A stretch of 61,650 bases of DNA, counting the filler. It is 7 parts of 7 records of this genome, joined end to end, with 100 filler letters (N's around TTAATTAATTAA, not from the genome) between each part and the next. Parts side by side here need not be neighbours in the genome. Positions count along the whole stretch, not along the records: positions 20,993 to 34,994 come from SRR31147125_27837; 6 more parts are not named here. The stretch is one strand, 5' to 3'. A program made the translations under genes and the position numbers. The stretch's first letter is position 1. Every line of letters starts with the position of its first letter. Positions 12,684 through 48,039 of the stretch are shown here, one piece after another. The notes under the pieces were generated by a model that saw nothing but the letters and a program-made list of their open reading frames with translations, was not told the origin of the DNA and ran no database searches.

Positions 12684-12693
12684 CTCTCCTTTA

Positions 12694-14037: not shown

Positions 14038-14137
14038 NNNNNNNNNNNNNNNNNNNNNNNNNNNNNNNNNNNNNNNNNNNNTTAATTAATTAANNNNNNN
14101 NNNNNNNNNNNNNNNNNNNNNNNNNNNNNNNNNNNNN
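14038..14137. other. Artificial contig spacer
   Basis: 100 nt of N with TTAATTAATTAA (stops in all frames). Confidence 0.98.
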
Positions 14138-16270: not shown

Positions 16271-16314
16271 AAAGCTTGAAAACCCTTTGCTTGCAAAGGA
16301 TTTTCAAGCTTTTT
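16271..16314. terminator. Bidirectional terminator
   Basis: AAAGCTTGAAAACCCTTTGC-TT-GCAAAGGATTTTCAAGCTTT between convergent genes. Confidence 0.75.
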
Positions 16315-20175: not shown

Positions 20176-20892
20176 TTATAAAGAGTTAGCAAATATAGCT
20201 TTAATCTCTTCATGTGTAGCTTGTTTTGGATTAGTTAGTCCACAAGCATCTTTTAATGCATTTTCCGTTAAGATATCGAAATCTTCCTCTTTAGCTCCAA
20301 GTTCTTTTATTCCACTTGGAATTCCAATGTCGGTAGATAGTTTTTTGATAGCGTCAATTGCTGCTTTTGCTCCATCTTCATCAGACATATTTTCTACGTC
20401 TACTCCCATAAATGAAGCTATATCTTTTAATCTATTTGCAGATACTTGAGAGTTATACTCTTGTACATGCGGTAATAAGATTGCGTTACACACTCCGTGA
20501 GGTAAGTCATAGAAGCCACCTAATTGGTGAGCCATTGCATGAACGTAACCAAGAGATGCATTGTTAAATGCCATACCTGCTAAAAATTCAGCATAAGCCA
20601 TCATATCTCTAGCTTCTACATTTTTACCATCTGCTACAGCGTTTCTAAGGTTAGCTGAGATTAATTCAACGGCTTTTTGCGCACAAGCATCAGTTACTGG
20701 CGTTGCAGCGGTAGAAACATATGCCTCTACAGCATGTGTTAATGCATCCATACCAGTTGCAGCTGTTAACCCTTTTGGCATATTTAGCATTAATAACGGA
20801 TCATTTACGGCTAAAATTGGAGTTGCATGCTTATCAACAATTGCCATTTTTACGTGTCTTACTTCATCTGTGATGATACAGAATCTAGTCAT
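20176..20892 (-). CDS. Iron-containing alcohol dehydrogenase (YiaY/AdhB-like), 5' truncated
   Basis: [36 protein letters not shown]. Confidence 0.93.
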
Positions 20893-20992
20893 NNNNNNNN
20901 NNNNNNNNNNNNNNNNNNNNNNNNNNNNNNNNNNNNTTAATTAATTAANNNNNNNNNNNNNNNNNNNNNNNNNNNNNNNNNNNNNNNNNNNN
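20893..20992. other. Artificial contig spacer
   Basis: N run with TTAATTAATTAA. Confidence 0.98.
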
Positions 20993-21299
20993 GTTTTTAT
21001 TAAACGTCCGGACAGCAGTGATATTAACTCTTAAAGTTATGAAAAATACTTTGCTTAAGGAATGAGAAAAGCATTGTCCGTAATCCTGCATTCCAATATG
21101 CCCTAATTGTGTGCTCAATTAGTACTCTAATGTATAACAAACCGAATCAATTGAGATCAAAACTTTCATTTCGTTCAGGCAAAAAAGAACCTGCATCACT
21201 CCCGATTCCATAATTTTTCCTACCCAAAATGGCAATCAACCTCTATGGATAACGTCTGTTGCTTTTGAGACCTTGATGATACATTTTCATAATAACATA

Positions 21300-22297
21300 T
21301 CATTTTGTTATCAAATTTATTTGGTTACAAATTTCAAATTGGGCGGATTGAGCACATTTCATGGTTGAGCCATCAACATTTACCGGGAAATTATTGATAT
21401 TGCTTGGTTTTACCCTTAGAGTTTTTTTTATGGTATAAGATTCGAATCCCCATTTGTCCGGATTTTCTAAAACAGAAGAATCCCAGGCGTGTTTAAACTG
21501 TCCTAATAGTTTGAATAATCCTAAATTTCTAAGAGCAAACAAATAAAATTCACCTGAACCCAATAGAGCTGATTGTGCAAACGGGAGATCCGGACCCAAA
21601 TCGCCATTCACGATAATCAAGGCTTGATAATAATTTTCACTTTTTTGCTCACCATCAATACTGATTTGCCACCTTTTTTTTCCATGAAAAACATCCGTTG
21701 AGATTTTTCGCAAAACTGCCAAGTTTGCACCGACAAAAAAAGGCCCCAGATCACCAAACAACTGGCTTAATATCCCTTTGTAATATTTTATGAATCTATT
21801 TTCAGTGAATCGGGGAATTTCCCAAAAATTTCAGCCCCACCATACCCTACGAAATGTCGGGGGATTACATCATCACCTTCACTTGTGGCCCGAAGGACAT
21901 CGCATTTGATTGTTTTATTTTCTCTGATTGAATCACTAAAGACCTTAATCGCCTGGTCAATGTTATCGGGCATTCCGAGCGTCTTTCCGATAAGATCAGC
22001 AGAACCCTTTCTTAAAAAACCTAATTTAACTTTTTCCAGATTTATCTGAGAATCCAAACATCCTTCCAGGACACTGTTGAATGTTCCTGAACCTCCGGCG
22101 GAAATAATGATTCTGCTTCCCCTCTTAACCAGATCACTGGTTGTATTTCTCGCTTTAGAGTGGCTATCAACTGAATAAAGTGAGATGTTTTCATACCCAT
22201 TTTTTTTAAATAAAGGGATAATATGTTTGACCTTGCTCCAATCTTTAACTGATCCGGAAATTGTGGTCGCAATTACATCTATTTTTAAATTTTTCAT
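21300..22297 (-). CDS. Diacylglycerol/lipid kinase family protein, frameshift near 21815
   Basis: ISAGGSGT, GFLRKGSADL; C-terminal half with VNVDG in ORF 21300-21761. Confidence 0.75.
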
Positions 22298-22299
22298 TT

Positions 22300-23721
22300 T
22301 TATTTTCTTTCAATGAATTTTTGAATAAAACTGTACGAATGTGTCATAACCTTTTCAAGGGATGCATTTCCATCGATAACACATGTTGGTTTATTCAAAT
22401 TACTATGAATCACATCACATACCAGCATATAAGCCTGCCGGAGTTGACCAAGTTTTTCTTCTGTTTCATGCACCTGCTTTGTTTCGCCTCTTTTTTCTAT
22501 TCGTTGACACGCAATTGAAGGATTAACATCAAGAAACATGACTATATCAGGTAATTTTAAATGATCAAGTCTTAAATATTTGAGAGATGTTAATTCAGAA
22601 AAATGCTTATAAATAGGATCCGTTTTCGCAATCTGTTCAGAAGCTGTTAATATTTTAATTGCTTTTAAACAAATTTCTTTTGTAAAATATTTTTGTTTAT
22701 ATAAAGAAGCCCATGCCGTTAAATTGAGTAATGGCGCACCATCTAAAACAATATAATCAGGCGAATACCATTTTTTCACTTCGTCGAGAATGTGGTCTCT
22801 GAGAAGAAGCTCGGCTAATTTAGGTATTTTGTACCCTTTGAGGGATTTTGCCTTTTTTGCATAACTTGAAATTATTTTCCTGATCTCATCAGTGATTAAG
22901 GGTTGGATATTTTTAAGATGACCATTTTCATAAAGCAATAGATTATCACTCACTAAACAGACAATGGCCTTATCGGAAAGTAATTCAGTCATTTTCCTTG
23001 AAAGTGTACTTTTCCCGGAACCGTCTATTCCCAAAAATGCTATCGTTACAATCGGTTTCTCTCTTTGTGGTTTTCTTTTATGTCGTGATCTAAGCGCCGA
23101 TTCTTCAAGCTGATTGAGGTTTTCTTCAAGCACTTGAGAGATGTTTTTAGATTTTCCATGAAAAATTTGTGGAGGAGCAATATAAACATCATTCCAAAAC
23201 GGTAAAGGGAAAAAACTTCCCTTTGGAAGTACTCTTTCCGGACCAAATAAATAAATTGGGATGATCGGAATTTGTGGGTACAGTACAGCGAGTCGGCCAA
23301 TACCACTCTGAAAATGAAGTATTTTCCCGGGATTGCCTCTTGTCCCCTCAGGAAAGATGATGACATTATGTCCATCATCAAGTTTTTCTTTTACCCCTTT
23401 TAATGGGTCCGTCTTTGAATAGTACATCCCTCTCTCAATCCAAATCGGTGAGAATAGTTTATTAACCATATAAAAAATGAATTTTGATCTGGAAAAATAT
23501 TCCCGACAAGCGACAGGGTGTGTAGTCATAATATCTTTAATCGGTAATACGCAAAACAAAACAAGAGTATCAAAATGGCTATTATGATTAGCGACTATGA
23601 TATATCTACCTAAATGTTGGATATTCTTTTTGCCAATGATATTGAATCCACAAAAGATTTTAACAAATGGGCGGAGTACAAGAATATGCAACAGTATCTG
23701 AATTTTAAATTTTATCTTCAT
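22300..23721 (-). CDS. PlsC-type acyltransferase fused to a thymidylate-kinase-like P-loop domain
   Basis: NHNSHFD and FPEGTRG; then FLGIDGSGKST and PDIVMFLDVNPSIACQRIEKRG. Confidence 0.85.
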   Translation of the reverse strand: MKIKFKIQILLHILVLRPFVKIFCGFNIIGKKNIQHLGRYIIVANHNSHFDTLVLFCVLPIKDIMTTHPVACREYFSRSKFIFYMVNKLFSPIWIERGMYYSKTDPLKGVKEKLDDGHNVIIFPEGTRGNPGKILHFQSGIGRLAVLYPQIPIIPIYLFGPERVLPKGSFFPLPFWNDVYIAPPQIFHGKSKNISQVLEENLNQLEESALRSRHKRKPQREKPIVTIAFLGIDGSGKSTLSRKMTELLSDKAIVCLVSDNLLLYENGHLKNIQPLITDEIRKIISSYAKKAKSLKGYKIPKLAELLLRDHILDEVKKWYSPDYIVLDGAPLLNLTAWASLYKQKYFTKEICLKAIKILTASEQIAKTDPIYKHFSELTSLKYLRLDHLKLPDIVMFLDVNPSIACQRIEKRGETKQVHETEEKLGQLRQAYMLVCDVIHSNLNKPTCVIDGNASLEKVMTHSYSFIQKFIERK

Positions 23722-24576
23722 CCAAAAAATATCTGATATAATGAAAAACTACAGGAGCTGTATAAAAAATTGATTTGAAATTTTCAAGAATGGCTCCTTT
23801 ACCGGGAAGGATATTCTCTTTTCTAATTCCCAGGTCAGATTCTATATGATCAATGGTAAAATTACCCATTAAAATAAGAAATGGAATTAGAATTCCCAAA
23901 GTAACGGAATGCTCCATTGGGATTCTGGTCCAGGGTGCTATAAAAACTGCTAAAATGACAATCACTGGCATTGCAGTCAGGTACGCGAAAAGCATTGCTT
24001 TGAAAACTTTTTTTCCTTTATCTGATGAAAATATAAAGTCATATTGCATATGATAATACTCGCAATCAACATAATAGCTACCCGTCGGGAGAAAAATGAC
24101 AAGTAGCCAATATGTCCAAGACAATACACGAATAGAAATAAACCAAAATAGATAGCTCCAGTAGAAAAAACGATCCCCTGTGTTTCCTTTCCACCCAAGG
24201 CAAGGAGGAAGGGAATAATTAAAAACGTGTAAACTGGAATTGATATAATAAACATTCCATACCAATTAATCTGGATATAATAAATCATAAAGGGAATTGA
24301 GAAATAAGCACCTAAAATTGCCCACCTGTCTTCTGGCCGCATATCGATTAATGAAAAATATTCGCGTAAAGACCAGAAACAAAGAATTGCCAATACCCAG
24401 ATCCCAAGTGAAAAAGAGATTATTTCAGCTATACTAAAAAAGAAGAAAAATATCCATAAAAAAGTCAGGTGGTTTGCGAAAAGGATTGGTTTTTTTACAA
24501 TATATTTTATAAGGGAAAAGAGGGATAGGATAATTAAAACTATAAAAATGGTAAGTTGAGATGATTCGATGTTCAT
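23705..24576 (-). CDS. Phosphatidate cytidylyltransferase-like membrane protein, degenerate motif, frameshift near 24010
   Basis: LREYF...YGMFIISIPVY N-terminus; C-terminus DLGI...ILPGKGAILENFKS...APVVFHYIRYF. Confidence 0.7.
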
Positions 24577-24634
24577 TTCATTTTTCCATTTTCAGTTATA
24601 AAAATGTCAAAACATTTTTGTCTCCTAATATTGA

Positions 24635-24663
24635 ATTGTAAGGGATACTTTTAATAAGAGCAA
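24635..24663 (-). promoter_or_regulatory. Sigma70-type promoter of the lipid operon
   Basis: TTGCTC-17nt-TACAAT about 60 nt upstream of the start. Confidence 0.45.
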
Positions 24664-25176
24664 GACATTTTTTAAATAAAATATACAAAATTGTATTCGA
24701 TTGTATTCAAGCCTAACCTTTAAAATATAAATAAATTATACCATTTTTTATCAAAGTTAAGGTTTCAGGAAAATTGTTTAGAAGAAAAGCGTTGCCCTTA
24801 ATCCTGAATTCAATCATGCTGTACTGGTGTACTCATTTTCTGACTTGAGAAATGCCAGCCGATAGCGATCAGGTAAATAATTTTATCCGGGTATTACAAA
24901 ATAATTGTAAGCATGTATCTTTCCAAATATTTACGACACTCTTTAAAAACTATGGCTTGAGGATTTGAAATTCCAAGTCTTTAGGTCCCGGAAAAGTAAT
25001 ATAACTATATTACCTACTATATCATTCTGTTCTTAATTTCTACTTGAAATAGTTACGTGCCAAAAATCTGAATACATATGTTTCAGAACTATTGTCAATA
25101 ATGTCGAAAAATTTTTAAAGGCATTAAATTGACAACTCTAAAAGTCATTTTCTCTCAAAAAATTAAAACAAATATA

Positions 25177-26553
25177 CTATTCCAGCTTATTCAATTTCTG
25201 ATTCAGTTCCAGAAAATCACAAAGGGTATTTACGTTTTGATTAAAAACGCTGCTTTTGATTCTGTCTTTGGTGATGTATTCGCCATTCCAGCGAACGCCA
25301 GGCACCATATTTCTGTAACGATCATTTTTTGTAATCCAGCGACCCGTTTCATCCTGAGTTTTGATAATTTTTTCAACCATTGGTTTCAAATTCCTGATCC
25401 TGCTTAATATGTCCTCCCGACTTTCCTTAACAGGATAGTCGGGTTCTATTTTTGACCGTTTCAGGATGATTGCATTGAATCGTGTTCTCACTCTTTCCAG
25501 AGCAGCAGACAGATCTGTTTCATAACCATAACCTGTCCTGCGTTCTATGTGCAATTCTTCCATGGAATTTACCCTGATCCGACCACGATCATAATAGAGT
25601 GGTTTATTGGTTCCCAGTTCTACAAACCTGGCCCACTTGCCATTGGGTAAACGAATATCATCCAGCCACAGAAACGCATCCGGAATGGGTTCCAGGTAGC
25701 CGGCATCGCCGGTATATTCATAGAGATCCATCAGGCTTTTGATATTCTGTACGGTCACTTGCGGGCACACTGACGGTGGTTCAAATGTCCTGGCCCAGGC
25801 TGGTTGAAGATGTCGGTTATATTGTTGTGCCCAACCCGGTTGCGGTGGAGGAAGCTGGGATATTTCCAAAAACCGGCCAACTTTATTAAGACTCTTTTCA
25901 TATTCCTCTTTTCCATAAAACTGATGTGCTTTCATCATGACGCGAATACAATCATTAATCCCTTTGTCATTAAAAGTGGCAAAATCATGATAATTCCCCT
26001 GCTCAGGATATCGATGCGGCCAGCCGCCATCCTTTAACTGAGACGTGAGCATCATATTCAACGCTTTATCTACTGCCATGGATAATGAATCGTTTTCTAT
26101 AACCTGATCCAATGTCATCAAAAATTCAATGGCGCTCTGCGTTTGATTATCATCAAAGCTGACAACCGATCTTTTTTCTTCGTTAAAGTGAATTTTATGT
26201 TCCCACCCACCCAGGTCGTTTTGACCATGAATGAGAGCAAACGCCGCATCTTTGGCAGCGTCAAGATATTTATTGTTGCCTGTTACATTAAACGCACGCA
26301 AAAAAGTCATTCCCACCGCAGGTGTACCCGGAGGCTGCACCTCTATGGTAAAATCATCTGTCCTGCCTTCCCCCCATTTTTCACTCATATCGACCGAATA
26401 GACATAAACATAACCGCCCTGTATATTTATAGAATGAAAATAAGAGATTCCTTTATCAAGGACATTTTCGACATCTTTAATATCATCAGCAAAAACAGGG
26501 ATAGAAAAGCAAAATAGTAACAGGAGAGCGAGAGAGACCAGTTTTTTCATCAT
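25177..26553 (-). CDS. Secreted pectate-lyase-like protein (PL10/PelA family)
   Basis: Signal peptide; SFDDNQT, GGWPHRYP, ATFND, GWAQQY, PAWARTFEP, WARFVE. Confidence 0.75.
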   Translation of the reverse strand: MMKKLVSLALLLLFCFSIPVFADDIKDVENVLDKGISYFHSINIQGGYVYVYSVDMSEKWGEGRTDDFTIEVQPPGTPAVGMTFLRAFNVTGNNKYLDAAKDAAFALIHGQNDLGGWEHKIHFNEEKRSVVSFDDNQTQSAIEFLMTLDQVIENDSLSMAVDKALNMMLTSQLKDGGWPHRYPEQGNYHDFATFNDKGINDCIRVMMKAHQFYGKEEYEKSLNKVGRFLEISQLPPPQPGWAQQYNRHLQPAWARTFEPPSVCPQVTVQNIKSLMDLYEYTGDAGYLEPIPDAFLWLDDIRLPNGKWARFVELGTNKPLYYDRGRIRVNSMEELHIERRTGYGYETDLSAALERVRTRFNAIILKRSKIEPDYPVKESREDILSRIRNLKPMVEKIIKTQDETGRWITKNDRYRNMVPGVRWNGEYITKDRIKSSVFNQNVNTLCDFLELNQKLNKLE

Positions 26554-26655
26554 CGTTAATACTTTCCGGATTTAAAAGATTTTATGCTTGTTGTTTAAGA
26601 TTATAACAGAAAAAAAATTAAAATTCATATAACGGATATTATTCGTCTATCCATT

Positions 26656-29169
26656 TCAATATAAAAACGGTACGACTATTTCCCCAAAAGCTTGTTCAGC
26701 ACTATTATGATAAGCCCCATAAAATGTACTATTACAATCCAGCCAGAGGGTAATCCTGTATAATTCATTATCGGATAGTTCTACACCATGGTGGTCGTTT
26801 GTTAACATGTTATAGAGTTCCGAGCCATACGCGCCAATCTGTCCGGGAATCGAATAGCTTGTTTCATTTTTCTTAATGAGAGCACCATTACCACCACTTT
26901 TAAACCAGGCAAATGGAGCGAGAGAGTGATACGCCTGGGACCAGCCAAACTCATTCTCATCTTTTGTTAATTTTGGTGCCCTGGCGTTTTTTTCATGGCA
27001 TCCGGAACAGTTTTTTTCCAAAACGGGCTGTACGAGTCTGGGAAAGGTTAATGGCCATGAGCCGTCCACATCCGGTTTTATTTTTGACGGAGCACGTTTA
27101 AGAGCCATGGGAACCATGGCAACAGAATTTTTTACAGATCGATGTTTTTGTTCATGACATCCCTGGCACACAAGTTTTTCACCACGATGGACATATGTCA
27201 GAGAACGCATGGTCTGAACAGCCAGACCTTTTTCATCAAGTGCCTGAAAATAGAGTGGTATTCCAGCTGGTGCTTCAAAATACACAGATCCGTCTTTTTC
27301 AACAGGAACTGTTCCTAAAACACCACGGGCTAAAGATTGGTCACCAGCTCCGATTTTTGGAATGGCTGCCTGCCGTGTTGTTTTGGGAAACAACTGCACC
27401 ACCCGAAGTGCTTTGATACCCGTATTCTCCGGCCAGTGAAAATCAGATTCGTAAATATTCATAACAGCAATGGTGGCTGTTGGATTGTCCATTTCAAATC
27501 TGCGGTCCGCCAAAGCCTGGGTTGTCTGGCTGGGAATGACAGGCGGGCGAGTACGTTTGACAAGAGGAATTGGATCCAGACACGGGACATTGGGATCGCG
27601 GTAAAGTAATATCCGGTTACCAAAAGTATCCAAAAGAGTCAAACCATGATTCTCTTGTTCAGGATCATAAACACAAAGATAAAAATCCTCACTTAACGGC
27701 CACGGAGAAGCATAGACTTCTCCTTGTGGACTATGCCGGCCTTTGGGATGTGGCACTCCTGGAGCCATTTCGGCTTCAGGAAAGTGGGCGTCAGGCGTAA
27801 TTCGTTTGATTTGTCCCATAGCTCGATCATCTTGTAACTTGTGATCCACAAGAACGAGCGATCCATATGACTGTCCGTGATGAGGAGCAGATACCGCCAC
27901 ATACTTTTGTGAACCAGGGATGGCACGGGGCGACAACTCCATCCACGGCCTGCTTTCTCTTAAATGCGGATAATTTCCATGAGAACTCCTCGGATCACGG
28001 CCGTCAGGATAACAAAACCACAAATGGTGAGCAATATCGGAATCGCGGTCAACATAATCCCATCGGGTATAGACTATTTTCCCGTCATTTGTCACGCTGG
28101 GGTGCCATTCGTGTGTTTCATGATAACTGAGGGGAATAATATCATTGCCATCAGGCATCATGGCGTGCAAGGTATAGGTGGGATCCGGACGGGCGCCACA
28201 GCGAAGATAACCTCCCCTGCGTTCAGATATGAAAGCGATACGTCCGTTTGGTAATACACATGGATCAAAATCATTCCAGGGTCCATCTGTCAATTGAGTG
28301 AGTCCGGAACCGTCGGTTTGAACTTTGAATATATGATAAGTGGATTCCAGGTTCCAATAGGATAAAATACCCGCTTCATCAAACTGATCCTGGCAGAACC
28401 ATTTACCGTTTGTATCGCCCTGATAAGGAATTGCGGCCTCTTTTGCCTCTGTCCAGGCGAAATAGATGGTACGAGCATCATAATCCAGTTCCAAACTGAT
28501 AAAGGAACCACCTTCCAGTTTTTGTCCTTTCATTCGGCCATTATTCACCGTCGCATTAACCAAAATATTTCGAACTATAGGTGATTGACCAAACAAATTG
28601 TCCACAACATAGAGTCCGCCACCAGGCTTGGCGTGGAAACCAAAATATTGATCACACATGTGGTCGTACCTGGCCTTATGGTGGGTCAGAAAAAGAAGTG
28701 ATTCAAAATCCAGTAATGGGTTTTTAAAAGCAATGTCCCGGCGTAACGAAATCATTTGTTTGAACAGCTTTTTCCGGAGCTCTTTATTTTCTATCGATGT
28801 GTTGACTGTTTGATTTTGCAGTGTTTGTAATTTATTTCCTTCACGTGACAAGTCCGGAGCATGTTCCATATCCTGAAGATAGTGCAAAAGAATTTTTGTA
28901 CGGCGTAGCAACACATCCAGCGGGTCCTTGTCAGATGGCAGAACAAGCGCCGCTTTGTGAAGTGTTTGCTCCATTAACTTTAACGGCATTTCATTTTTAC
29001 TATAAAAATCAATCTGCTTTTGGATATAAGTGTATTCCATTTCAGATTCAAGGTCGATCAAATTCGTACTATTGACAGTTTTCACAGGGGACCCTGCCAG
29101 AACCTGAACCAGTAGAAATGTGGTCAGGAATAAAAAAGACAATCTCATATTCATTTTTACAGCACTCAT
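26656..29169 (-). CDS. Hydrazine-synthase-alpha-like (HzsA-related) c-type cytochrome
   Basis: Signal peptide; TolB-like propeller repeats (DPCVLPNGRIAFISER, YTRWDYVDR); LGTVPVEKDGS...FQALD middle domain; CQGCH, CSGCH. Confidence 0.78.
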   Translation of the reverse strand: MSAVKMNMRLSFLFLTTFLLVQVLAGSPVKTVNSTNLIDLESEMEYTYIQKQIDFYSKNEMPLKLMEQTLHKAALVLPSDKDPLDVLLRRTKILLHYLQDMEHAPDLSREGNKLQTLQNQTVNTSIENKELRKKLFKQMISLRRDIAFKNPLLDFESLLFLTHHKARYDHMCDQYFGFHAKPGGGLYVVDNLFGQSPIVRNILVNATVNNGRMKGQKLEGGSFISLELDYDARTIYFAWTEAKEAAIPYQGDTNGKWFCQDQFDEAGILSYWNLESTYHIFKVQTDGSGLTQLTDGPWNDFDPCVLPNGRIAFISERRGGYLRCGARPDPTYTLHAMMPDGNDIIPLSYHETHEWHPSVTNDGKIVYTRWDYVDRDSDIAHHLWFCYPDGRDPRSSHGNYPHLRESRPWMELSPRAIPGSQKYVAVSAPHHGQSYGSLVLVDHKLQDDRAMGQIKRITPDAHFPEAEMAPGVPHPKGRHSPQGEVYASPWPLSEDFYLCVYDPEQENHGLTLLDTFGNRILLYRDPNVPCLDPIPLVKRTRPPVIPSQTTQALADRRFEMDNPTATIAVMNIYESDFHWPENTGIKALRVVQLFPKTTRQAAIPKIGAGDQSLARGVLGTVPVEKDGSVYFEAPAGIPLYFQALDEKGLAVQTMRSLTYVHRGEKLVCQGCHEQKHRSVKNSVAMVPMALKRAPSKIKPDVDGSWPLTFPRLVQPVLEKNCSGCHEKNARAPKLTKDENEFGWSQAYHSLAPFAWFKSGGNGALIKKNETSYSIPGQIGAYGSELYNMLTNDHHGVELSDNELYRITLWLDCNSTFYGAYHNSAEQAFGEIVVPFLY

Positions 29170-29270
29170 TCCAGGTCTCCATAAATAACAAACGTTTCAA
29201 ACAGATCTTTTATACGAATCAGAACAGAATTTCAATTCTCAACATGGATTAATCATCATCTTTTATATTA

Positions 29271-31778
29271 TTAAAACGTGGTCACAGATTCCCAGTATTT
29301 TCGATCTGCCTCATAGGGATTAACGTGCTGCCGTGGCATATCCTTGTCCACAATACCGAACCGCAGCATTTCCCGGTAATACTCGGGTCGAACGACAAAA
29401 TCGTTCATATCAAATCTTTTGATAGAATCCAGATATGTTTTGGTATGCCGGATTGCCTGCAGGAGGGTCACATATCCTTCATCTTTTTTTGTTGCAAAGA
29501 TACTCTTGTCATCCTCACGACAGAGCCCATATCCTCCGGCATGCCGGGATAACGGTGCCAACAGCAGTGTAGAGTTTTCAGGCGTCGTTAAATCATATAC
29601 AATATGCCGGGAAAAAGTGACTTTTTCAAAAAATTCTTCCTGTTTGATATAACCGTTCATCATATCTGTCCGGCTTTTCCACCAGATCAGGTTTTTCTCT
29701 TCGCATATATCCGGCATGAGTTCCTGGTGGCATGACTGGCAATCTTCTTTAATCACTTTTGTTGCAGCCTGCCACTTTGCATTTTCAACCGGTCTTCGGT
29801 CAGGATCATTTCGTATCATCCTCCCTATCATGCCCGAGCCCAGCGCCGCATACGTTCCGGGATATGTTGCGCCGGTATTAATCCAAAATCGTAACATTTG
29901 AAGTTCAGAATCCGCAAGATTGACCCCTTTGTGATGATTTTCTATTAATCGGATGAACGGACTTTGGGAATCACCAACCATTTCCGGTTTATTAAGGGGT
30001 TCGTATTGATTTCGGCCATCATTGACCAAAAATCGGGCGAGAAGGTTAAAATAACTATGAGAATAAACCGGACCTCTATTGCCGGTTAACAACAGTCCTG
30101 CGGACCGTTTTTGCGGATTATGACATCCAACACAGTGCCGGTCGAGAATCGGTTGAATATCCCGGGGAAAATCAATAACATCCGGAATACCCGCTATTTT
30201 TTGCGGTTCGAGTGGCGGTTTTTTCGTCGCCAACGGATATGCTGATCTGTTGGCCGGCGTTAATGTTCTGTGTTCATGACAGCCAATGCAGGTAACGGTT
30301 TCTCCAGCCACGACCGAGGTGAAACTTTTCATTCGTTGCAGAGCACGATTATCCTGGTCCAATGCCACAAACAAAAAGCTTTTATTGGCAGGAAGCGTAA
30401 AATGGGCCGAACCATCGGACTCTATGGGCACGGTTCCGACAATTCGCTCAAGTGTGAACGAGCCGGTATAGGTCAAGGGTTCATTGCCGCCGGTAAAGTT
30501 GATGGGTTTTGGCAATGTTTCCAAAACCAGTAATTTCTTTATCTGTCCTCGCATCGAATCCGACATGTTCCGTCCTTCATAGACATCCTGTAAAACGATC
30601 GTACCAATGTCTTTTGCCGGATGCAGTGCTGACGCAATAACAGGTTCGGGGATTCTTTTCAGCACGGGTCTGGGTTCAAAAACTTTATATCCATTATCTC
30701 TTAAATTTTCAGGTAAAGAAAAGATATTTTTCTTAGTGCCATTCTCATTTATAAGCGCCAGTTGTTCACCTGTAGATACAAGATAAAGGCTTGATGAAAT
30801 CGGAAAGGGATCGTAAATATACTCTTTGTTTTTTCCCTTCCAAATGAATGTTACTGCCTGTTTTTGATCAGGACCTTGTTTAAGGGAAATCCGTGCCAAA
30901 TGTCCGGCGTGCTCTCTTCTTCCATGTCCGGGAGAAAATGAGGTGATAATATCCGAGGTGCCAGGGATTGGCTTTGCATCGATCAACAGGCACGATTCGG
31001 GAACACTGGTATGCTGATTGCCAAATAAAACGCTTTGTTTTGAGCCGTCAGGATTCATGATCCACAAATGGTGAAAATGCACCTGACTGCGATCAACGTA
31101 CTCCCAGCGGGTGTACATGATCCTGCCATCCGGCATAACCCAGGGTGTGTTATCATGTTCGATATTGGCGGACAATTGTGTAATTTCACTCCCATCAGCC
31201 TTGCAGCGATATAGCACAGCCACCTGGGTTGCCCAGCAATTGACCCATCTCTGGCAGCGGGAGGAGACAAACATAATATCACCATCAGGCAGGTAACATG
31301 GCTCGATATCCGAAAAAGGTCCTTCGGTAAGTTGTCTTAAAAAACGGCCGTTAACATCCGTTTCATACAGATGAAAAGCATCCTCGCCACCTTTGCGATA
31401 TGAAAAAAGGATCCTGTTGCCATCATAATGCAATTGAGGATCACGATAACTTCCTTTTTCATCTTCAAACAAGATTGTGATTGATTTATCACGAACATTA
31501 TATTTGCACAGGCTCCCTCCTTCAGAGTGGCATTTGTGGTTTTCATCCGAGGCAAAATAGCCGAAATTCGCATACCAATGCCCATCCTCAGCTAATTTCC
31601 GTGTGACAAAAACAATGTCTTCAATACCAGTGTTGTCAAATGACAAATTATCATTCTGAATTTGGGAAAACGAAATGTCTGGTTCCTGAAATACCAAAAC
31701 GAGCAGGAACATCAGAAAAAAACGCCGACTGAATAATGTGCTGAAATTCATATAGTTTTCCTTAAATATCCGGGACAT
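29271..31778 (-). CDS. Second hydrazine-synthase-alpha-like c-type cytochrome
   Basis: EPCYLPDGDIMFVSSR, YTRWEYVDR, VGTVPIESDGS; CIGCH, CVGCH, CQSCH. Confidence 0.78.
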   Translation of the reverse strand: MSRIFKENYMNFSTLFSRRFFLMFLLVLVFQEPDISFSQIQNDNLSFDNTGIEDIVFVTRKLAEDGHWYANFGYFASDENHKCHSEGGSLCKYNVRDKSITILFEDEKGSYRDPQLHYDGNRILFSYRKGGEDAFHLYETDVNGRFLRQLTEGPFSDIEPCYLPDGDIMFVSSRCQRWVNCWATQVAVLYRCKADGSEITQLSANIEHDNTPWVMPDGRIMYTRWEYVDRSQVHFHHLWIMNPDGSKQSVLFGNQHTSVPESCLLIDAKPIPGTSDIITSFSPGHGRREHAGHLARISLKQGPDQKQAVTFIWKGKNKEYIYDPFPISSSLYLVSTGEQLALINENGTKKNIFSLPENLRDNGYKVFEPRPVLKRIPEPVIASALHPAKDIGTIVLQDVYEGRNMSDSMRGQIKKLLVLETLPKPINFTGGNEPLTYTGSFTLERIVGTVPIESDGSAHFTLPANKSFLFVALDQDNRALQRMKSFTSVVAGETVTCIGCHEHRTLTPANRSAYPLATKKPPLEPQKIAGIPDVIDFPRDIQPILDRHCVGCHNPQKRSAGLLLTGNRGPVYSHSYFNLLARFLVNDGRNQYEPLNKPEMVGDSQSPFIRLIENHHKGVNLADSELQMLRFWINTGATYPGTYAALGSGMIGRMIRNDPDRRPVENAKWQAATKVIKEDCQSCHQELMPDICEEKNLIWWKSRTDMMNGYIKQEEFFEKVTFSRHIVYDLTTPENSTLLLAPLSRHAGGYGLCREDDKSIFATKKDEGYVTLLQAIRHTKTYLDSIKRFDMNDFVVRPEYYREMLRFGIVDKDMPRQHVNPYEADRKYWESVTTF

Positions 31779-31875
31779 AAACTTTAGAATTCACAAGGCA
31801 ATTTAATGGATTTGCCAATACTGATTTTTTAAATTTCCAGGATCAGGTTCATTGTATAATTCACGTCAAATCTTG

Positions 31876-33003
31876 TCAACTTTTAAAGGCATCCACCTCT
31901 ATTTCAAATAATAAATCATCCCGACAAATATCCGCGTGCGCGATGGCAATGGGTAATGGCGGCAGATTATTTTTCTGACAATAGTGCCGAAACGCCGGGA
32001 TATCACTCATATCCTTAAAATAGGCATCGGCTCTCACCACGTCAGACCAGTTCATATCATTGTCGTTCAGAATCGCCAGCACAACCTGCATTGTTAAATC
32101 AATTTGCTTTTCGATGTCACCAACAAAAGCCGTTTCTCCGTCCGGATAAATACTGGCTGTTCCGGACACATACAACCGTTGATGATCCGGAAAATCGACT
32201 TTGACAGCACGGCTAAAGGAGCTTTTATAATCCAGAGCCGGGCATTGGAGAGGAGAAGGAACCGGTCTTATGTTAATAAAATCCTTTTTCTTCTGAAACG
32301 CAAGGACATTCACAATAACCGCTTCGTTCTGCGGATTGCTGACACCAATTCCGGTGCTTGCCGGTACCATATTATTGAATACATTGCGTTCATTAAAAAA
32401 TCCGGTTCGTACTATATTAAAATCATCATACCATTCGAGAATCTGGTTTATATACAGCCAGGTTCGCACGACATTGGAAAAATCCATGCCCGCCTTTTCC
32501 AGAGCCAGCTCGATATTTTCAAATGTCTTCCCTGCCTGTTCCGGTCTGGTCAAAGCGGTATTTGAAGATTTGATATCCGCAAGATAACAATATCTCATAT
32601 ATTCATCTTCGAACACACTGCCAACCATTCGGCCATCCACAACGATAGGATCAACCTTTGTATTTTCAACAATATGCAACTGGGATCCTGTCAGCTCTGT
32701 AGCAGAACCACCATCCCCTTCAATCCATGAGACAGGCCACGTGATATCACCGCACAACGCAGCAAGTGCTTCCATACCTTCTTTATACAAACTGCATGGG
32801 CCAAATACATTTTGATGCAGAATTGTTGATTTATGCCCCTGTTTAAACTGCGCAATTTTTTCAAACATGGCAGACGGAGTTTTATCGCCACCCGGATGTA
32901 TCGTCATATAATATTTTTTCAACCGGGATCTGGAAACAGTCACAATGTCAAGTTCCCGGGAAAATTGTCTTTCTATCTGTGCACCTTTACCGTTCTGATT
33001 CAT
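31876..33003 (-). CDS. Long Rid/YjgF-superfamily protein (FkbO/Hyg5 chorismatase-like)
   Basis: VVRTW, PASTGIG, SSFSRA, YVSGTASI, ADICRDDLLFEIE. Confidence 0.8.
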   Translation of the reverse strand: MNQNGKGAQIERQFSRELDIVTVSRSRLKKYYMTIHPGGDKTPSAMFEKIAQFKQGHKSTILHQNVFGPCSLYKEGMEALAALCGDITWPVSWIEGDGGSATELTGSQLHIVENTKVDPIVVDGRMVGSVFEDEYMRYCYLADIKSSNTALTRPEQAGKTFENIELALEKAGMDFSNVVRTWLYINQILEWYDDFNIVRTGFFNERNVFNNMVPASTGIGVSNPQNEAVIVNVLAFQKKKDFINIRPVPSPLQCPALDYKSSFSRAVKVDFPDHQRLYVSGTASIYPDGETAFVGDIEKQIDLTMQVVLAILNDNDMNWSDVVRADAYFKDMSDIPAFRHYCQKNNLPPLPIAIAHADICRDDLLFEIEVDAFKS

Positions 33004-33043
33004 TCTGTATCCTTTTTTCTAAAGAGATCCTTGCCATTCCGTT

Positions 33044-34924
33044 TTACAGTGATAAAATATACTCGATCAGGTCTTTTATTTCTTCCGGTTTTAAATCTGA
33101 TGTGATCCCGTGTTTATCTTCTTTATTATGAATCGTTAAAACATCTTTGATGGTGACAGCCCGGCCATCATAGAGATAAGGTGCTGTTCGCCACACTTCT
33201 CTCAGCGTCGGGACGTCAAATTTGACACCCTGATCCATGTTCTCGCCCATTCCCAGGTCGTATTTTTGTTTATCCGTGAAATAGGGTCCGGAGTGACAGG
33301 ACAGACATCCTGCTTTTTCAAATATTTTTTTGCCGCGTTTTGCTGCCTTGCTCAACTTTCCTTTTTTTAGATATGGACTTTGCACGGGTTGCAGGGATTT
33401 TAAATACTCATCAATCGCAACAGCCTCTTCTTCCGGTCGGACTGTAAACTGTATATATTTCAGGCCAGCCCGAACCGCTACCTCTGCTTTGTCGCGTATA
33501 CCGGTGATCATAGCAGGTGGTGTTTTATGAGATAAAATCAAACTTTTCACCTGTTTTGGGTTTCCCATGCCGTCGTTTAACAGATCCCAGTTCAAGCCGT
33601 CCGCGCGGGTATCCGGATGACAACTCACACAACTTTGCCAGTGTTGAAAACATCGCGTCCCATCGTGAAAATACAATTCACCTTTACGAATTATATCCAT
33701 TTCTACCTCCGGTCCCAGTGCCACGGACCGGGCTGCAGGTTTTGTATCCGAATCGAGATCAACAATACCGATACTGTTTGTAAAGTACTCGGCAATATAT
33801 AATGTGGAGCCGACTGTGGTGAAACCGCGTGGACCTTTTCCTTTTAACTTTATACGCTTTTTCAGGCCAACAAGGAATGAAAGATCATTCTGCACATCCA
33901 TGGGTGATAGTGACACATCTGAAACATGTTCGCCATTGTGTAAATTTGTCAGTTTCTCATGCATGCCCACTCTGTCTATCACAGCCACTTCATGGGTACC
34001 GGACAGCGTGACACACAGATTTTTACCATCTTCCGTACATTGAATTCCCCATGGATTGGCAGCACCCAGATCCACATCATCCAAAAGAACTGTGTTGTGC
34101 CATTTTTTGCTAGCATTTTCGATAATGGTCACTGCGTTTGTGTTCATCCAGCCACGTTCCAGTTGCGTTGTGGGCACCAGGTAACGCCCAAGCACGTGGG
34201 TAATATAAACATACTGTCCGTCCGGAGACAGGCACATGCCGCGTACACCGGTGGAACCGTTTGGTAGCGGAACACTTTTGACAACCGTATTTGTTTCCGT
34301 ACTGATTATGTCAACACGTGCGCTCATGGTTTCATAGTTGGCCGCGCCAAGAGGCATGTGATTGGCAACGTATAGGTATTTGCCATCCTGCGTTAGAAGC
34401 ACAGCGTTTGGCTCGCGCGTGACCGGAATGGTGGCTGTTTCTTTTCGTTTTTTGAGATCAATGACGGATATATTATTGTCAAATCGATTGCATACATATC
34501 CTGTTTTGCCATCATTGGAAACGACCATGGCCGTGGGTGTGTGTCCAACAGCTATTTTATGACGAATTTTGCCTTTTTCCACATCCACACGATAAACTTT
34601 TCCCTCCGGAGAATTGGTTGTCACCAACAGATTGCCGTTATCCGGTGATAAGGCCATGGCCAAAGGTGATTCCGGCAGCTTTATGGTGTTTAAAACAGTG
34701 CCGTCTGCCACATAAACAACAGCAATTTCCCTGGAGCCGGTTTCAGACACATAAACAGTTTTCTGGTCTTCACTTTTAATGACGTTCATGGGTGATGAGT
34801 ATTCTGCGGCTGCCACATGTTCGTAAACCAGAACCAAGGAAAATATCAGAATGAAAAACCATTTGATCATAATCCGTAAAATTTGCTGCAGACCAGAACC
34901 AACAACTTTTTTGATCAATTCCAT
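33044..34924 (-). CDS. YVTN/YncE beta-propeller fused to a di-heme cytochrome c peroxidase-like domain
   Basis: Repeated YVxN propeller blades; CVSCH and CLSCH; FDVPTLREVWRTAPYLYDG. Confidence 0.82.
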   Translation of the reverse strand: MELIKKVVGSGLQQILRIMIKWFFILIFSLVLVYEHVAAAEYSSPMNVIKSEDQKTVYVSETGSREIAVVYVADGTVLNTIKLPESPLAMALSPDNGNLLVTTNSPEGKVYRVDVEKGKIRHKIAVGHTPTAMVVSNDGKTGYVCNRFDNNISVIDLKKRKETATIPVTREPNAVLLTQDGKYLYVANHMPLGAANYETMSARVDIISTETNTVVKSVPLPNGSTGVRGMCLSPDGQYVYITHVLGRYLVPTTQLERGWMNTNAVTIIENASKKWHNTVLLDDVDLGAANPWGIQCTEDGKNLCVTLSGTHEVAVIDRVGMHEKLTNLHNGEHVSDVSLSPMDVQNDLSFLVGLKKRIKLKGKGPRGFTTVGSTLYIAEYFTNSIGIVDLDSDTKPAARSVALGPEVEMDIIRKGELYFHDGTRCFQHWQSCVSCHPDTRADGLNWDLLNDGMGNPKQVKSLILSHKTPPAMITGIRDKAEVAVRAGLKYIQFTVRPEEEAVAIDEYLKSLQPVQSPYLKKGKLSKAAKRGKKIFEKAGCLSCHSGPYFTDKQKYDLGMGENMDQGVKFDVPTLREVWRTAPYLYDGRAVTIKDVLTIHNKEDKHGITSDLKPEEIKDLIEYILSL

Positions 34925-34994
34925 TTCTAATATCCTCTCTGGTTTATTCCGATTATTAACCGATTCTGACTAGCTCATGGGATGATATTTTTTT

Positions 34995-35094
34995 NNNNNN
35001 NNNNNNNNNNNNNNNNNNNNNNNNNNNNNNNNNNNNNNTTAATTAATTAANNNNNNNNNNNNNNNNNNNNNNNNNNNNNNNNNNNNNNNNNNNN
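34995..35094. other. Artificial contig spacer
   Basis: N run with TTAATTAATTAA. Confidence 0.98.
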
Positions 35095-41398: not shown

Positions 41399-42143
41399 CT
41401 AATTAGTACCTGATTTCGGTTTGCGAACAAGAATATTAAGAATAATAAATCCCACAACCAGAATAATTGGTAAGATTGTCATGTTTCGTAATGTAACTTG
41501 AGCTCCGGCTGTTTCAATTGATTTTCCCATAATTGGTAATACCATTGAAGTTGCCACAAAACCGGCTCCTCCTAAAATCGACATTCCTAGCGCTCCACTT
41601 TTAGGTACATATTCAGATGCAACACCAATCATGGTAGGCCAGAAATAACAAACACCAACTGCAAATACAGCTGCTGATAATACGGTTACAACCGGTCCGT
41701 TTGCAATACTTAAAAGGAATAATCCTAAAACAGAGAATATAGCTGAGCCTAATAATACACCTGGAGGATTCAGGCGATGAATTAAACCACCTGCGAAGAA
41801 ACGACCAACAGCCATTAATCCGGTAACAACGGCCAGTACAATCATTGGGTGAATACCATTATCGGCAAGCAAAGCATTAATCCATTGTGTAGTACCCAAT
41901 TCTGTTGAAGACGTAAGCAACATACACGCAAAAACAAACGGAAATAGCAATGTAATTTTATTTACTAATCTACCTTCGATAATAATTAATACAGTTATTA
42001 AAGCAACAATAATTAATGGAGTAGAATAATTGGCGGTAACCATTTCTGCAATTGAAGGAGTTGTAGCTACCAAAATCATAAAAATTACAGCAAGAGTAAT
42101 TGTATATGGCGCTCCAATATTACGCATCATTTCTTTATAACTA
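41399..42143 (-). CDS. MFS sugar transporter, 5' truncated
   Basis: TELGTTQWI, MAVGRFFAG, YFWPTMIG. Confidence 0.85.
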
Positions 42144-42243
42144 NNNNNNNNNNNNNNNNNNNNNNNNNNNNNNNNNNNNNNNNNNNNTTAATTAATTAAN
42201 NNNNNNNNNNNNNNNNNNNNNNNNNNNNNNNNNNNNNNNNNNN
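42144..42243. other. Artificial contig spacer
   Basis: N run with TTAATTAATTAA. Confidence 0.98.
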
Positions 42244-46384: not shown

Positions 46385-47873
46385 TTAATTAATCCTGAAC
46401 ACAAATGCATGTTCGCAAGGTTTGTTATTGGGCAATTGAATGGTTAAAGCATCAGCATTTCTGTCCCATTGTAATTTGCCGTTATGACCAATTAACTCTA
46501 TCGTTTTAATTTTGCCGTTATAGAGGCTGGTGCTTAACGATTTTATTGGAAGCGCTCCCGATTCGGGCCATCCCAAAGCAATAGCGTACAATTGTCCGTC
46601 GCGTGTTGTAAAGCGGATGTCTTCATCACCAAAACCATCAAATTTCATATCGGCTAAATGTCCTGTTTTTGTTTCGGTAGGTCCTTCTCCAAAAATTAAC
46701 CATGGACGACTTTCGTAAATAGCCTCTCCGTTTAGTTTTAACCATTTCCCCATTTCGCGCAGGCGTTGCTTTTGGTCTGCCGGGATGCTTCCGTCGGGAT
46801 GTGGTGCAATATTAAGTAATAAGCAACCATTTTTACTCACAATATCCACCAGGTCGTCAATTAAATTATTAGTAGGATAACAGACCAAATCAGGTGTCCA
46901 AATCCACAACTTTTTAGATATGGAATTGTCGGTTAACCAAGGGGCGGGATAAATTTTTGGCATACGATTACGTTCAAGGTCAACTGTTCCTGTTCCAAGC
47001 GGAAAGTCAGGACGTTTAAATGTTAAAACAAATTCCTTAGCCGTTTTTTTCAGCATGATTGTAAGCATAAGCCATCATTTCTTTGCGCACTTTTTCAGAA
47101 AGAATCTGCACGCGATTATCGAACCAAAGTAAGTCGGGCGAATAGCCGTCAACCACCTCCTTTACTTTTTCAAGCCAAACGCGCTCAAAATCAGCACTTG
47201 GCATTGGGTAAACTTTGTAATAACCTTTGGTATCTTTCGTTCTCCACGCTGTTTCGGGCACTTTTTCGCCGTATAACGATGCATTTGCAGGGTCAGCGCA
47301 ATCGGTATTTTCGTCCCAGGTCGGAAACCATCCCCATAGCCACGAGTGGTGTAAACTAACTACATATTTTAATCCGCGCTTACGGATAGCCTTTTCCATC
47401 TCGGCAACAACATCGCGCTTTGGTCCCATATCAACAGCATTCCATGGATTTACTTTAGAGTCCCACATAGAAAAACCATCGGCATGCTCGCCGGCCGGCC
47501 CGGCAAAACGGGCTCCCGACTCTACAAATAAGTCGGCCCATTCATCGGCATCAAACTTAGGTGCAGTAAAGAGAGGAACTAGATCCTTGTAGCCAAATTT
47601 ATTGTGGTCGCCATAGGTTTCTTTATGGTATTTATAGTTGGGGTGCGACTCGAAATACATGTTATGCCCGTACCAATCAGAAGCCGTTTCGGGAACGGAA
47701 TACACCCCCCAGTGTGTATAAATACCAAACTTGGCATCCTTAAACCACTCGGGGCATTCGTATTGCTGAAGCGATTCCCAGGTGGGCTCGTATTTCTTTT
47801 GTGCATTGGCAAACTGAAAGCTAATGCAGATTATTGCAATGCATATTGTTCTTGTTAGATTTTTCATTGGCAT
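46385..47873 (-). CDS. Alpha-L-fucosidase (GH29), frameshift near 47040
   Basis: [47 protein letters not shown]. Confidence 0.88.
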
Positions 47874-47939: not shown

Positions 47940-48039
47940 NNNNNNNNNNNNNNNNNNNNNNNNNNNNNNNNNNNNNNNNNNNNTTAATTAATTAANNNNN
48001 NNNNNNNNNNNNNNNNNNNNNNNNNNNNNNNNNNNNNNN
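47940..48039. other. Artificial contig spacer
   Basis: N run with TTAATTAATTAA. Confidence 0.98.

Follow-up and report, generated by a model that had tools for sequence, protein, structure and literature searches.

A putative hydrazine-synthase-like haem protein cluster, apparently not a hydrazine synthase, with a predicted chorismatase-fold partner

Does a gene cluster that carries the domain set of anammox hydrazine synthase (HZS) encode that enzyme or another periplasmic haem system? The question is raised by five genes on contig SRR31147125_27837, which occupies positions 20993-34994 of the window, the whole stretch of 61,650 nucleotides analysed here. The five open reading frames (ORFs) lie on the minus strand, head to tail, with intergenic gaps of 40, 97, 101 and 102 nt, and are named P0001 (33044-34924, 626 aa), P0002 (31876-33003, 375 aa), P0003 (29271-31778, 835 aa), P0004 (26656-29169, 837 aa) and P0005 (25177-26553, 458 aa). 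Independent ORF calls agree with the five co-oriented genes of a preliminary description made from the DNA letters. Signal-like hydrophobic N-terminal segments are found on P0001, P0003, P0004 and P0005 and none on P0002. The module is predicted to contain three exported c-type haem proteins: a fused HzsB/HzsC-like protein (P0001, BC-like) and two deeply diverged HzsA-like proteins (P0003 and P0004, A-like). The reading proposed here, held with its mechanism as a whole at a probability of about 0.6, is that the locus is not an HZS and belongs to a widespread group of non-anammox HZS-like modules.

P0001 has a signal or anchor sequence, a seven-bladed YVTN-type beta-propeller (HzsB-like) and a C-terminal di-haem domain of MauG/cytochrome c peroxidase type (HzsC-like). 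CxxCH motifs are two only, at residues 432-436 and 540-544. The NCBIfam model of the fused protein, hydrazine_BC, is matched with E 1.7e-50 and 172 bits (cut-off 1250), hydrazine_beta with 126 bits (cut-off 560) and hydrazine_gamma with 85 bits (cut-off 625). Chains B and C of PDB 5C2V are matched with E 5.5e-30 and 1.4e-25, respectively. These matches bear out the 626-aa propeller plus di-haem fusion described before. The C-terminal domain is also matched weakly by the CCP_MauG, MbnH and MauG models and by the PDB peroxidases 3O5C, 1IQC and 1EB7. In common with the di-haem cytochrome c peroxidase/MauG/MbnH family it has two CxxCH motifs in a cytochrome c peroxidase-like domain and a 'P(T/S)LR...APY.HDG'-type motif, but it is fused to a seven-bladed propeller. 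The sixth ligand of the second haem is Met in di-haem peroxidases and Tyr in MauG; the corresponding region of P0001 has His, not Met or Tyr.

P0003 is composed of a signal peptide, a PD40-type propeller, an HZS_alpha haem domain, a cytochrome c domain and a C-terminal extension, with three CxxCH motifs (residues 497, 549 and 680). P0004 is composed of a signal peptide, an N-terminal helical domain, a propeller, an HZS_alpha haem domain and a cytochrome c domain, with two CxxCH motifs (residues 668 and 721). The Pfam HZS_alpha middle domain is matched with 72.3 bits by P0003 and 80.6 bits by P0004 (cut-off 26.6), in agreement with the two exported propeller/multihaem proteins of about 835 aa reported earlier. 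With the profile searches that had been suggested as a check, HZS_alpha was thus found above its Pfam cut-off; CCP_MauG stayed below, at 20.7 against 25.6. NCBIfam hydrazine_alpha gives 77.4 bits for P0003 and 48.5 bits for the other A-like protein (cut-off 800). Both match PDB 5C2V chain A, P0003 with E 1.1e-9. The AlphaFold2 model of P0004, built from a 36-sequence alignment, has a predicted local distance difference test score (pLDDT) of 77.8 and a predicted template modelling score of 0.85. Its top Foldseek match is 5C2V_A (E 6.3e-30, template modelling scores (TM) 0.57/0.62, 832 columns, 17% identity); the next is TolB (E 1.8e-9), for the propeller only. The modelled chain keeps the three-domain fold of HZS alpha, so the structural similarity sought for the alpha-like proteins is present in the P0004 model. 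The domain set of the cluster, judged from sequence and from the predicted fold of the alpha-like protein, is homologous to HZS alpha plus fused beta-gamma, and its co-encoding, which had been proposed before, is upheld by matches to all three subunits.

Homology of domains is compared with identity of catalytic residues as follows. According to the available text of PMC12607021, haem gamma-I of HZS is bound by three Cys (Cys102, Cys105 and Cys165), Asp168 being placed at the distal water; haem alpha-I has Tyr591 as the proximal ligand, with His587 of its CxxCH turned to a Zn held in common with Cys303; the beta loop 245-260 nears the tunnel; the bis-His haems are low-potential. True hzsB-hzsC-hzsA operons were used as reference; residue numbers counted in one of these operons agree with the published ones. 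Four c-type haem motifs (alpha-I, alpha-II, gamma-I and gamma-II) are present at homologous places in the cluster (P0001, 432 and 540; P0003, 497 and 549; P0004, 668 and 721), together with a beta loop of equal length, as in the HZS of Kuenenia stuttgartiensis (5C2V) and the fused HzsBC of Scalindua. P0003 differs from HZS alpha in a third haem, P0004 in the added N-terminal helical domain.

The BC-like family was compared over P0001 and 118 relatives (119 of 121 sequences, kept at a length of 560-700 aa). Gamma-Cys102, Cys105 and His106 are invariant. The gamma-Cys165 column is Gly in 119/119 proteins; the gamma-Asp168 column is Tyr in P0001 and His, Phe or Tyr in most of the family; the gamma-His144 column is Ile and the gamma-Glu122 column is Asp. 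The three-Cys haem gamma-I with Asp168 is therefore absent from P0001, with Cys102, Cys105 and His106 kept. Beta loop 245-260 is ungapped, of HzsB length and nearly invariant, with E or D at position 256 in 119/119. As in HzsC, the His of a 'DKHG' motif close to the second haem does not vary. HzsC has an insert of about 35 residues after the second haem motif, which P0001 lacks. An invariant extra Cys, C425 (window about 33650-33652), stands seven residues before the first CxxCH ('CFQ.WQSC.SCHP') in 58/58 aligned BC-like proteins and is missing from HzsC. C425 might take the place of the third haem-Cys link found in HzsC, or make another cross-link.

The A-like family was compared over P0003, P0004 and 34 proteins from related loci (n=36), after four ORFs of <600 aa were dropped. 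At the alpha-Tyr591 position P0003 has Thr and P0004 has His, and none of the 36 has Tyr. The alpha-Cys303 column is Gln, Tyr or a gap; Cys is absent. The Tyr591/His587-Zn/Cys303 site of HZS is not found in P0003 or P0004. The first-site CxxCH is followed by Glu in 36/36, and the second haem motif is present in 36/36. In the tree, which was run against true HzsA as had been advised, a long branch with full support stands between four true HzsA and the 36 A-like proteins. The neighbours of P0003 are three-haem proteins from Planctomycetota loci (L001, L021 and L076), those of P0004 are Hydrogenedentota proteins (L041 and L045) in a different deep subfamily. The preliminary description had called the alpha subunit duplicated: two A-like genes are indeed present, but, since they fall in different deep subfamilies, the duplication is not recent, and P0003 and P0004 appear to be ancient paralogues. 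Tandem A-like pairs from different subfamilies occur in other loci too.

Scores of P0001, P0003 and P0004 lie 7- to 16-fold below the NCBIfam equivalog cut-offs NF052339-NF052342, whereas true HzsA genes of Planctomycetota genomes score 1518-1606 bits (cut-off 800). Because the catalytic residues of HZS are absent and the scores are far below these cut-offs, N-N chemistry of HZS type, which had been offered as one option for the cluster, is unlikely. By residues and scores the locus does not appear to be an HZS, and it is very unlikely that its proteins make hydrazine.

Clusters of this kind are known from papers of 2023 and 2025. In 2023, hzsA-like genes co-located with fused hzsBC-like genes were reported outside anammox bacteria, from Phycisphaerae UBA1845 and KSB1 metagenome-assembled genomes (MAGs), as given in the available part of PMC10732223. 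Hagglund et al. (2025) gave an in-depth analysis of non-anammox HZS homologue clusters, divided into clades I-IV, with key HZS residues lost (PMC12758564, as far as its available text goes). The present cluster is like those described in the accessible parts of both papers in having a fused beta-gamma-like gene beside alpha-like genes, with haem motifs kept and key HZS residues lost. The phyla named in that part of PMC12758564 and those of the relatives found here coincide (Planctomycetota/Phycisphaerae, Lentisphaerota-type and Hydrogenedentota). As described there, clades I-III have an FG-GAP/CRTAC1-family gene in the cluster, and clades I and III have extra N-terminal haem motifs on the beta-gamma-like protein. 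No FG-GAP/CRTAC1 or ATP-binding cassette (ABC) binding-protein gene is found by Pfam among the ORFs of the contig, which matches clade IV in that account; membership in clade IV would be consistent with gene content and haem count by the description in the paper. Anaerohalosphaera lusitana, a culturable species, is named there as having two clade IV clusters. Differences from the clusters as the available text presents them are as follows. The genes stand here in the order BC-like, chorismatase-fold, A-like, A-like, lyase. The second alpha haem site is lacking from clades II and III, and both sites are found in all 36 A-like proteins here. The loop Glu is reported there as not conserved in its clades, and an acidic residue at beta 256 is kept here (the Mg-binding loop Glu of HZS is not assigned to a position). 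Chorismatase, Rid, sulfatase and FGE are not mentioned in the main text of PMC12758564; one supplement file has no RidA, endoribonuclease or chorismatase entry, and other supplements may bear on the point. Foldseek matches named 'Formylglycine-generating sulfatase enzyme' and 'F5/8 type C' are present in the part of the supplement available. A literature search gave no paper joining 'chorismatase' with 'hydrazine synthase', and searches on HZS-like terms, HZS_alpha/PF18582 and FGE-sulfatase with cytochrome c gave nothing on function. What is new here is the link to a chorismatase fold, the ancient paralogy of the A-like proteins, and the A-like copy numbers with FGE-sulfatase and sugar-binding fusions.

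P0002 had been described as a Rid protein. It is instead predicted to be a chorismatase-fold protein of three Rid-like lobes, not a plain RidA. Pfam matches are Ribonuc_L-PSP and FkbO_Hyg5-like_N. The RidA model TIGR00004 is matched with 59.1 bits, under the cut-off of 106.25, and the chain of 375 aa is three-lobed as against the single domain of about 125 aa. The chorismatase model TIGR04444 is matched with 75.9 bits; the cut-off of 325 is not reached. The structural model of P0002 has a pLDDT of 91.6. Over the whole chain its top Foldseek matches are the chorismatases 5A3K and 5AG3 (Hyg5 type) and 4BPS (FkbO), with E 5e-19 to 1.5e-16 and TM 0.60-0.72; single-domain RidA structures cover about one third of the model. 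Motifs R-T/M-W, PA(S/A)TGIG, F(S/A)RA, SGTAS and CR.DLL.EIE are held in common with the chorismatases FkbO, Hyg5 and XanB2, and the C-terminal 'LLFEIE' motif is kept. In the alignment C360, which is invariant in the family, falls on the Cys replaced by Ser in 5A3K, a deposited variant of Hyg5 type. The motifs in common with Hyg5 and FkbO, C360 included, are presumably catalytic positions. P0002 differs from FkbO, Hyg5 and XanB2 in identity (only 17-23%), in an N-terminal third unmatched by sequence, and in its genomic partner, which is an exported haem module instead of a polyketide or pigment pathway. No signal peptide is predicted in P0002 or in its 21 aligned relatives, so the protein is presumably cytoplasmic.

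Is the chorismatase-fold gene a regular part of such modules? In the search for relatives of P0001, 5062/7999 scored candidates passed; the best 120 are 54-63% identical, and one more, on a public contig of 55.9 kb, is 92% identical. Species-representative genomes scanned with P0001 yielded 552 matching stretches, and the 80 best were surveyed as loci. By their records these belong to Sedimentisphaerales, further Phycisphaerae, Pirellulales, Victivallales/Lentisphaerae, Hydrogenedentota and additional groups. In 23/66 loci with at least 1300 nt downstream, the BC-like gene is immediately followed by a P0002 relative of the same orientation, and two more are cut by contig ends; nowhere else within any of the 80 loci are P0002 relatives found. 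Loci with at least 5 kb on both sides number 42: an A-like gene is encoded in 18 of them, 15 show a chorismatase-like gene immediately after the BC-like one, and 10 combine the two. Two or more A-like genes occur in 9/70 loci. Clustering of ORFs from the related loci recovers the BC-like family in 65, the A-like in 27 and the chorismatase-like in 19 loci; one 16-locus cluster consists of ORFs antisense to the BC-like gene. By the same clustering no conserved exporter, extra cytochrome or DAHP synthase stands beside the module, and no other real gene cluster occurs in >5 loci. Other CxxCH-bearing ORFs in the related loci number 6 only. In a tree of 65 BC-like proteins, P0001 falls in a 41-row clade, 24 rows of which, P0001 included, have an adjacent chorismatase-like gene; its nearest rows are Victivallales/Lentisphaeria. 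Within this clade, modules have the chorismatase-fold enzyme as their conserved third component.

Three side observations were made at these loci. A gene for a pyridoxal phosphate-dependent (PALP) enzyme is found at L001:8691-10079 (+), from Sedimentisphaerales, directly downstream of the BC-like gene in the usual slot of the chorismatase-like gene. An exported protein of about 225 aa without a Pfam family is encoded beside A-like genes at L014:9169-9861, L015:2458-3129 and L019:4371-5060; it carries a twin-arginine-like signal in 2/3 loci and has no relative on the contig of the cluster. The third concerns a chorismatase-like gene away from BC-like genes and is given below.

At genome level a sample of 301 Planctomycetota genomes was searched (thresholds: BC-like E<=1e-60, P0002-like E<=1e-15, HZS_alpha E<=1e-25). 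BC-like matches occur in 24/301 and P0002-like matches in 30/301 genomes; 17 genomes have both, 7 the BC-like match alone, 13 the P0002-like match alone and 264 none (Fisher p 1.3e-14, the kinship of genomes being ignored). A P0002-like gene is present in 15/16 genomes with the closest BC-like genes. HZS_alpha is found in 23/301 genomes, 8 of which have true HzsA; the other 15, non-anammox genomes, have BC-like matches in 14/15 and P0002-like matches in 15/15, kinship again ignored. No P0002-like match occurs in the 14 sample genomes with true HzsA above the cut-off, a further difference from genomes with HZS. Within 1.5-kb flanks of the 30 P0002-like genes, a BC-like gene is adjacent to 7 and an A-like gene to 3. 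When nine of these regions were widened, 2/3 A-like adjacencies were seen again, one more A-like gene lay 3 kb off, and six had neither. In one of those six, L118:7712-10354 (+) of Planctomycetota genome G021, the chorismatase-like gene follows a gene for a 526-aa PD40-propeller protein without haem motifs; in the genome search the two genes came out as one 883-aa open frame that contains a single TAG. A metagenome scan with P0002 gave only 2 loci. Conserved adjacency together with co-occurrence across genomes indicates that the gene set is not a chance neighbourhood. The expectation that the genes recur together elsewhere holds for the BC-like, A-like and chorismatase-like genes and fails for the fifth gene.

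That fifth gene, P0005, encodes an exported PL10-like (alpha/alpha barrel) protein of the pectate lyase family. Pfam Pec_lyase is matched with 100 bits (cut-off 22) and the PL10 pectate lyases 1R76 and 1GXM of the PDB with E 7e-14 to 1e-12, in line with the lyase named earlier; the TIGR02474 equivalog is matched with 113.5 bits, under its cut-off of 189.8. P0005 is co-oriented with the other four genes and similar in base composition (GC 0.42). A PL10-like relative, and with it a link to HZS-like genes elsewhere, is found in 0/80 related BC-like loci. It is not a conserved partner of the HZS-like module.

Copy number and fusions of the A-like family bear on the role of the module. HZS-alpha-like proteins had been noted as widespread, and five genomes in which the paired BC-like and chorismatase-like genes have no A-like gene next to them contain 17, 39, 46, 11 and 6 HZS_alpha domains. 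The BC-like gene is single-copy in each of the five, apart from one extra partial match. The Pfam HZS_alpha search also gives matches in the control genome of Bacteroides thetaiotaomicron. Of 12 paralogues picked from the 46 in one genome, 8 carry a C-terminal FGE-sulfatase (formylglycine-enzyme-like) domain, one of them with two sulfatase domains in addition (L148, below), and several carry F5/8C, CBM6 or NPCBM sugar-binding modules. An FGE-sulfatase domain is also present on 16/36 BC-adjacent A-like proteins, with single members carrying NPCBM, LamG or F5/8C. At L148:3642-10628 (+), in the Victivallales-type genome G003, an ORF of 2328 aa combines F5/8C, the HZS_alpha haem core, FGE-sulfatase and two sulfatase domains; by its predicted domains this fusion ties the A-like family to sulfatases. 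Neighbours of the module in related loci include genes for sulfatases, GH88/PL-like, rhamnosidase-like and GH42-like proteins, GFO/IDH/MocA oxidoreductases, sugar kinases and a sodium:solute symporter. No nitrogen-cycle family was found among the Pfam-scanned neighbour genes of the related loci and of the cluster's contig; the absence of other anammox genes was judged on the 14-kb contig of the cluster. This context, together with a P0005 of matching composition, moderately favours a role in glycan breakdown, and oxidative glycan processing, an alternative raised at the outset, fits the family better through its FGE-sulfatase and sugar-binding fusions and its neighbour genes.

The mechanism proposed for the non-anammox module is as follows. 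BC-like and A-like proteins would assemble in the periplasm in the manner of HZS alpha and beta-gamma. Electrons would enter via bis-His-type haems and reach His-ligated catalytic haems. The catalytic haems would have a canonical CxxCH followed by the invariant Glu instead of the Tyr/Zn site of HzsA, so that the reaction would differ from the condensation of NO, NH2OH and NH3. The PL10-like lyase would be a local addition. With about one chance in three, the role is a redox step in the breakdown of complex, often sulfated glycans, in which the haem proteins use an acid derived from chorismate, or a comparable enol-ether or enamine compound, that the chorismatase-fold enzyme supplies or processes. 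A bolder extension is unlikely, if conceivable: HZS-like haem systems would be a periplasmic redox machine of anaerobic glycan degraders, needing an aromatic acid made in the cell from chorismate. The Hyg5-like enzyme would make this acid, likely 3-hydroxybenzoate, which would serve as substrate, as redox mediator or as precursor of a cofactor. The single-copy BC-like protein would be a hub for many A-like proteins, which in other genomes are tethered to glycans through sugar-binding modules and fused to FGE-sulfatase-like domains.

Several observations weigh against this proposal. The score of P0002 is far under the TIGR04444 cut-off (75.9 versus 325). Neither partner is found near the BC-like gene in 19/42 fully flanked loci, and the second clade of the BC-like tree, 24 rows of Pirellulales/Thermoguttaceae type, has 0 adjacent chorismatase-like genes and 3 A-like neighbours; BC-like proteins may thus also work alone or with distant genes. 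At the thresholds used, 13/30 genomes with a chorismatase-like match have no BC-like match. With a single BC-like gene against 6 to 46 HZS_alpha domains, most A-like proteins cannot depend on an adjacent BC-like protein. P0003 and P0004 have no FGE domain and no carbohydrate-binding module (CBM). The link to glycans consists of fusions and neighbours in phyla that are rich in such genes anyway.

Other functions were weighed against the same data. In an enzyme of nitrogen oxides or hydroxylamine, BC-like haem I would reduce NO (or nitrite or hydroxylamine) as in HzsC, the A-like haem would handle the product in detoxification or in N-N or N-O chemistry, and the Rid-fold protein would hydrolyse an imine and free ammonia. 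True homology to all three HZS subunits would be explained, as would the retention of the haem gamma-I motif, of the gamma-Glu122 position as Asp and of the beta tunnel loop. Rid-family proteins are imine/enamine hydrolases, which would give P0002 a place. The second haem is bis-His-type as in HzsC, and such haems are low-potential in HZS as presented in the available text of PMC12607021. However, gamma-Cys165, gamma-Asp168, alpha-Tyr591 and alpha-Cys303 are all missing, 0 nitrogen-cycle families are found among the Pfam-scanned neighbour genes, the haem proteins are exported but the Rid-fold protein lacks a signal peptide, and the A-like family occurs in dozens of copies with sugar-binding and FGE-sulfatase fusions. 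This enzyme is improbable; N-N chemistry is less likely than a redox role linked to glycans. A periplasmic peroxidase, in which the BC-like di-haem domain scavenges peroxide as a bacterial cytochrome c peroxidase with A-like cytochromes as electron donors or protected clients, would agree with the weak C-terminal matches (CCP_MauG, MbnH, MauG; 3O5C, 1IQC, 1EB7) and with a BC-like gene that stands alone in 19/42 loci. It is likewise given a low probability: the conserved His at the second haem is at odds with the Met of peroxidases and the Tyr of MauG, CCP_MauG does not reach the Pfam cut-off, and the conserved chorismatase-fold partner and the propeller with its conserved loop are left unexplained.

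MauG-family enzymes mature protein cofactors, and a MauG-like BC protein acting with A-like proteins could modify exported proteins, for example by formylglycine or cross-link formation in sulfatases without oxygen. The FGE-sulfatase fusions in 16/36 BC-adjacent A-like proteins and the L148 paralogue of HZS_alpha, FGE-sulfatase and two sulfatase domains speak for protein maturation; the lack of an FGE domain in P0003 and P0004 and the sugar-binding modules on paralogues, which indicate glycan and not protein targets, make it doubtful to the point of being poorly credible. That the five genes are mere neighbours with no common function is highly improbable. The missing PL10-like relatives (0/80 loci) and a consensus scan with no informative promoter or terminator pattern would suit mere neighbours, but the BC-like, A-like and chorismatase-like genes are conserved in adjacency and in co-occurrence across genomes, and the five genes have a GC content of 0.42-0.45 in common as against 0.33-0.38 on the rest of the contig.

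Metagenome surveys pick up non-anammox HZS-like genes under the name 'hzs', with the risk that they are counted as anammox markers by mistake; the present cluster is a clear case where catalytic residues speak against marker status. The HZS-like family is very large (552 stretches in the species-representative scan, up to 46 alpha-like copies per genome). The chorismatase-fold partner, by adjacency and across genomes, is the most useful new handle, being a presumably soluble cytoplasmic enzyme for which an assay on chorismate is feasible. The FGE-sulfatase and sugar-binding fusions direct attention to the degradation of sulfated glycans, not to the nitrogen cycle.

The window contains six N44-TTAATTAATTAA-N44 linkers, at 14038-14137, 20893-20992, 34995-35094, 42144-42243, 47940-48039 and 55523-55622, and is thus a chain of seven contigs. 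Gene neighbourhood across the joints is not real for this reason, and, with a joint at 34995-35094, DNA past 34994 is no genomic context for the cluster. The cluster's contig of 14 kb ends 70 nt upstream of the ATG of P0001, as had been recognised in the remark that it is cut upstream. Genes abutting joints are cut by contig ends and are not pseudogenes: the C-terminal part of ADH_Fe (20176-20892), an MFS fragment (41399-42130) and a molybdopterin-binding fragment (55670-56116). An Rfam scan of the window gave no match, and ten of its proteins had no exact counterpart in the protein collection searched. Consensus scans were uninformative for promoters (34 promoter-like sites versus 24.8 expected) and for terminators (11 terminator-like sites versus 10.4 expected).

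GC of the five cluster genes is 0.42-0.45 (0.39-0.44 at third codon positions, GC3) versus 0.33-0.38 in the other genes of the contig. Horizontal transfer into a low-GC genome was weighed from this step and is not claimed, the contig being short and the bin possibly mixed. For one gene that flanks the cluster on its own contig, the best named matches are to MAGs of Aminicenantes, KSB1 and Bacteroidota (48-64%). YidC, encoded on another contig (GC 0.45-0.50) that is unjoined to the cluster, is 71-78% identical to Desulfamplus-type proteins. A Desulfobacterota host for the cluster was rejected, because the Desulfamplus-like YidC sits on a separate contig and the cluster's flanking gene matches Aminicenantes/KSB1/Bacteroidota MAGs. 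Two composition classes are seen: 48040-61650 (rnpA, yidC, panC and mobB contigs) with GC 0.44-0.51, and 1-47939 with GC 0.28-0.45. The bin may be mixed in origin.

Minor features of the other contigs are as follows. An alpha-L-fucosidase gene is split into overlapping ORFs at 46385-47873 (-), with the N-terminal part at 47037-47873 and the C-terminal part at 46385-47068. The panC gene is apparently split at 50653-51532 (-), into 50653-51372 and a 119-aa ORF at 51173-51532. Both look like frameshifts or assembly errors within contigs. A 751-aa protein encoded at 16313-18568 (-) has a LysM domain and, over two stretches, a very strong match (729 bits) to the beta-propeller phytase family. A co-oriented sugar-use set at 8580-13941 (-) comprises genes for an MFS_2 transporter, an FGGY kinase, a class II aldolase and a class III aminotransferase.

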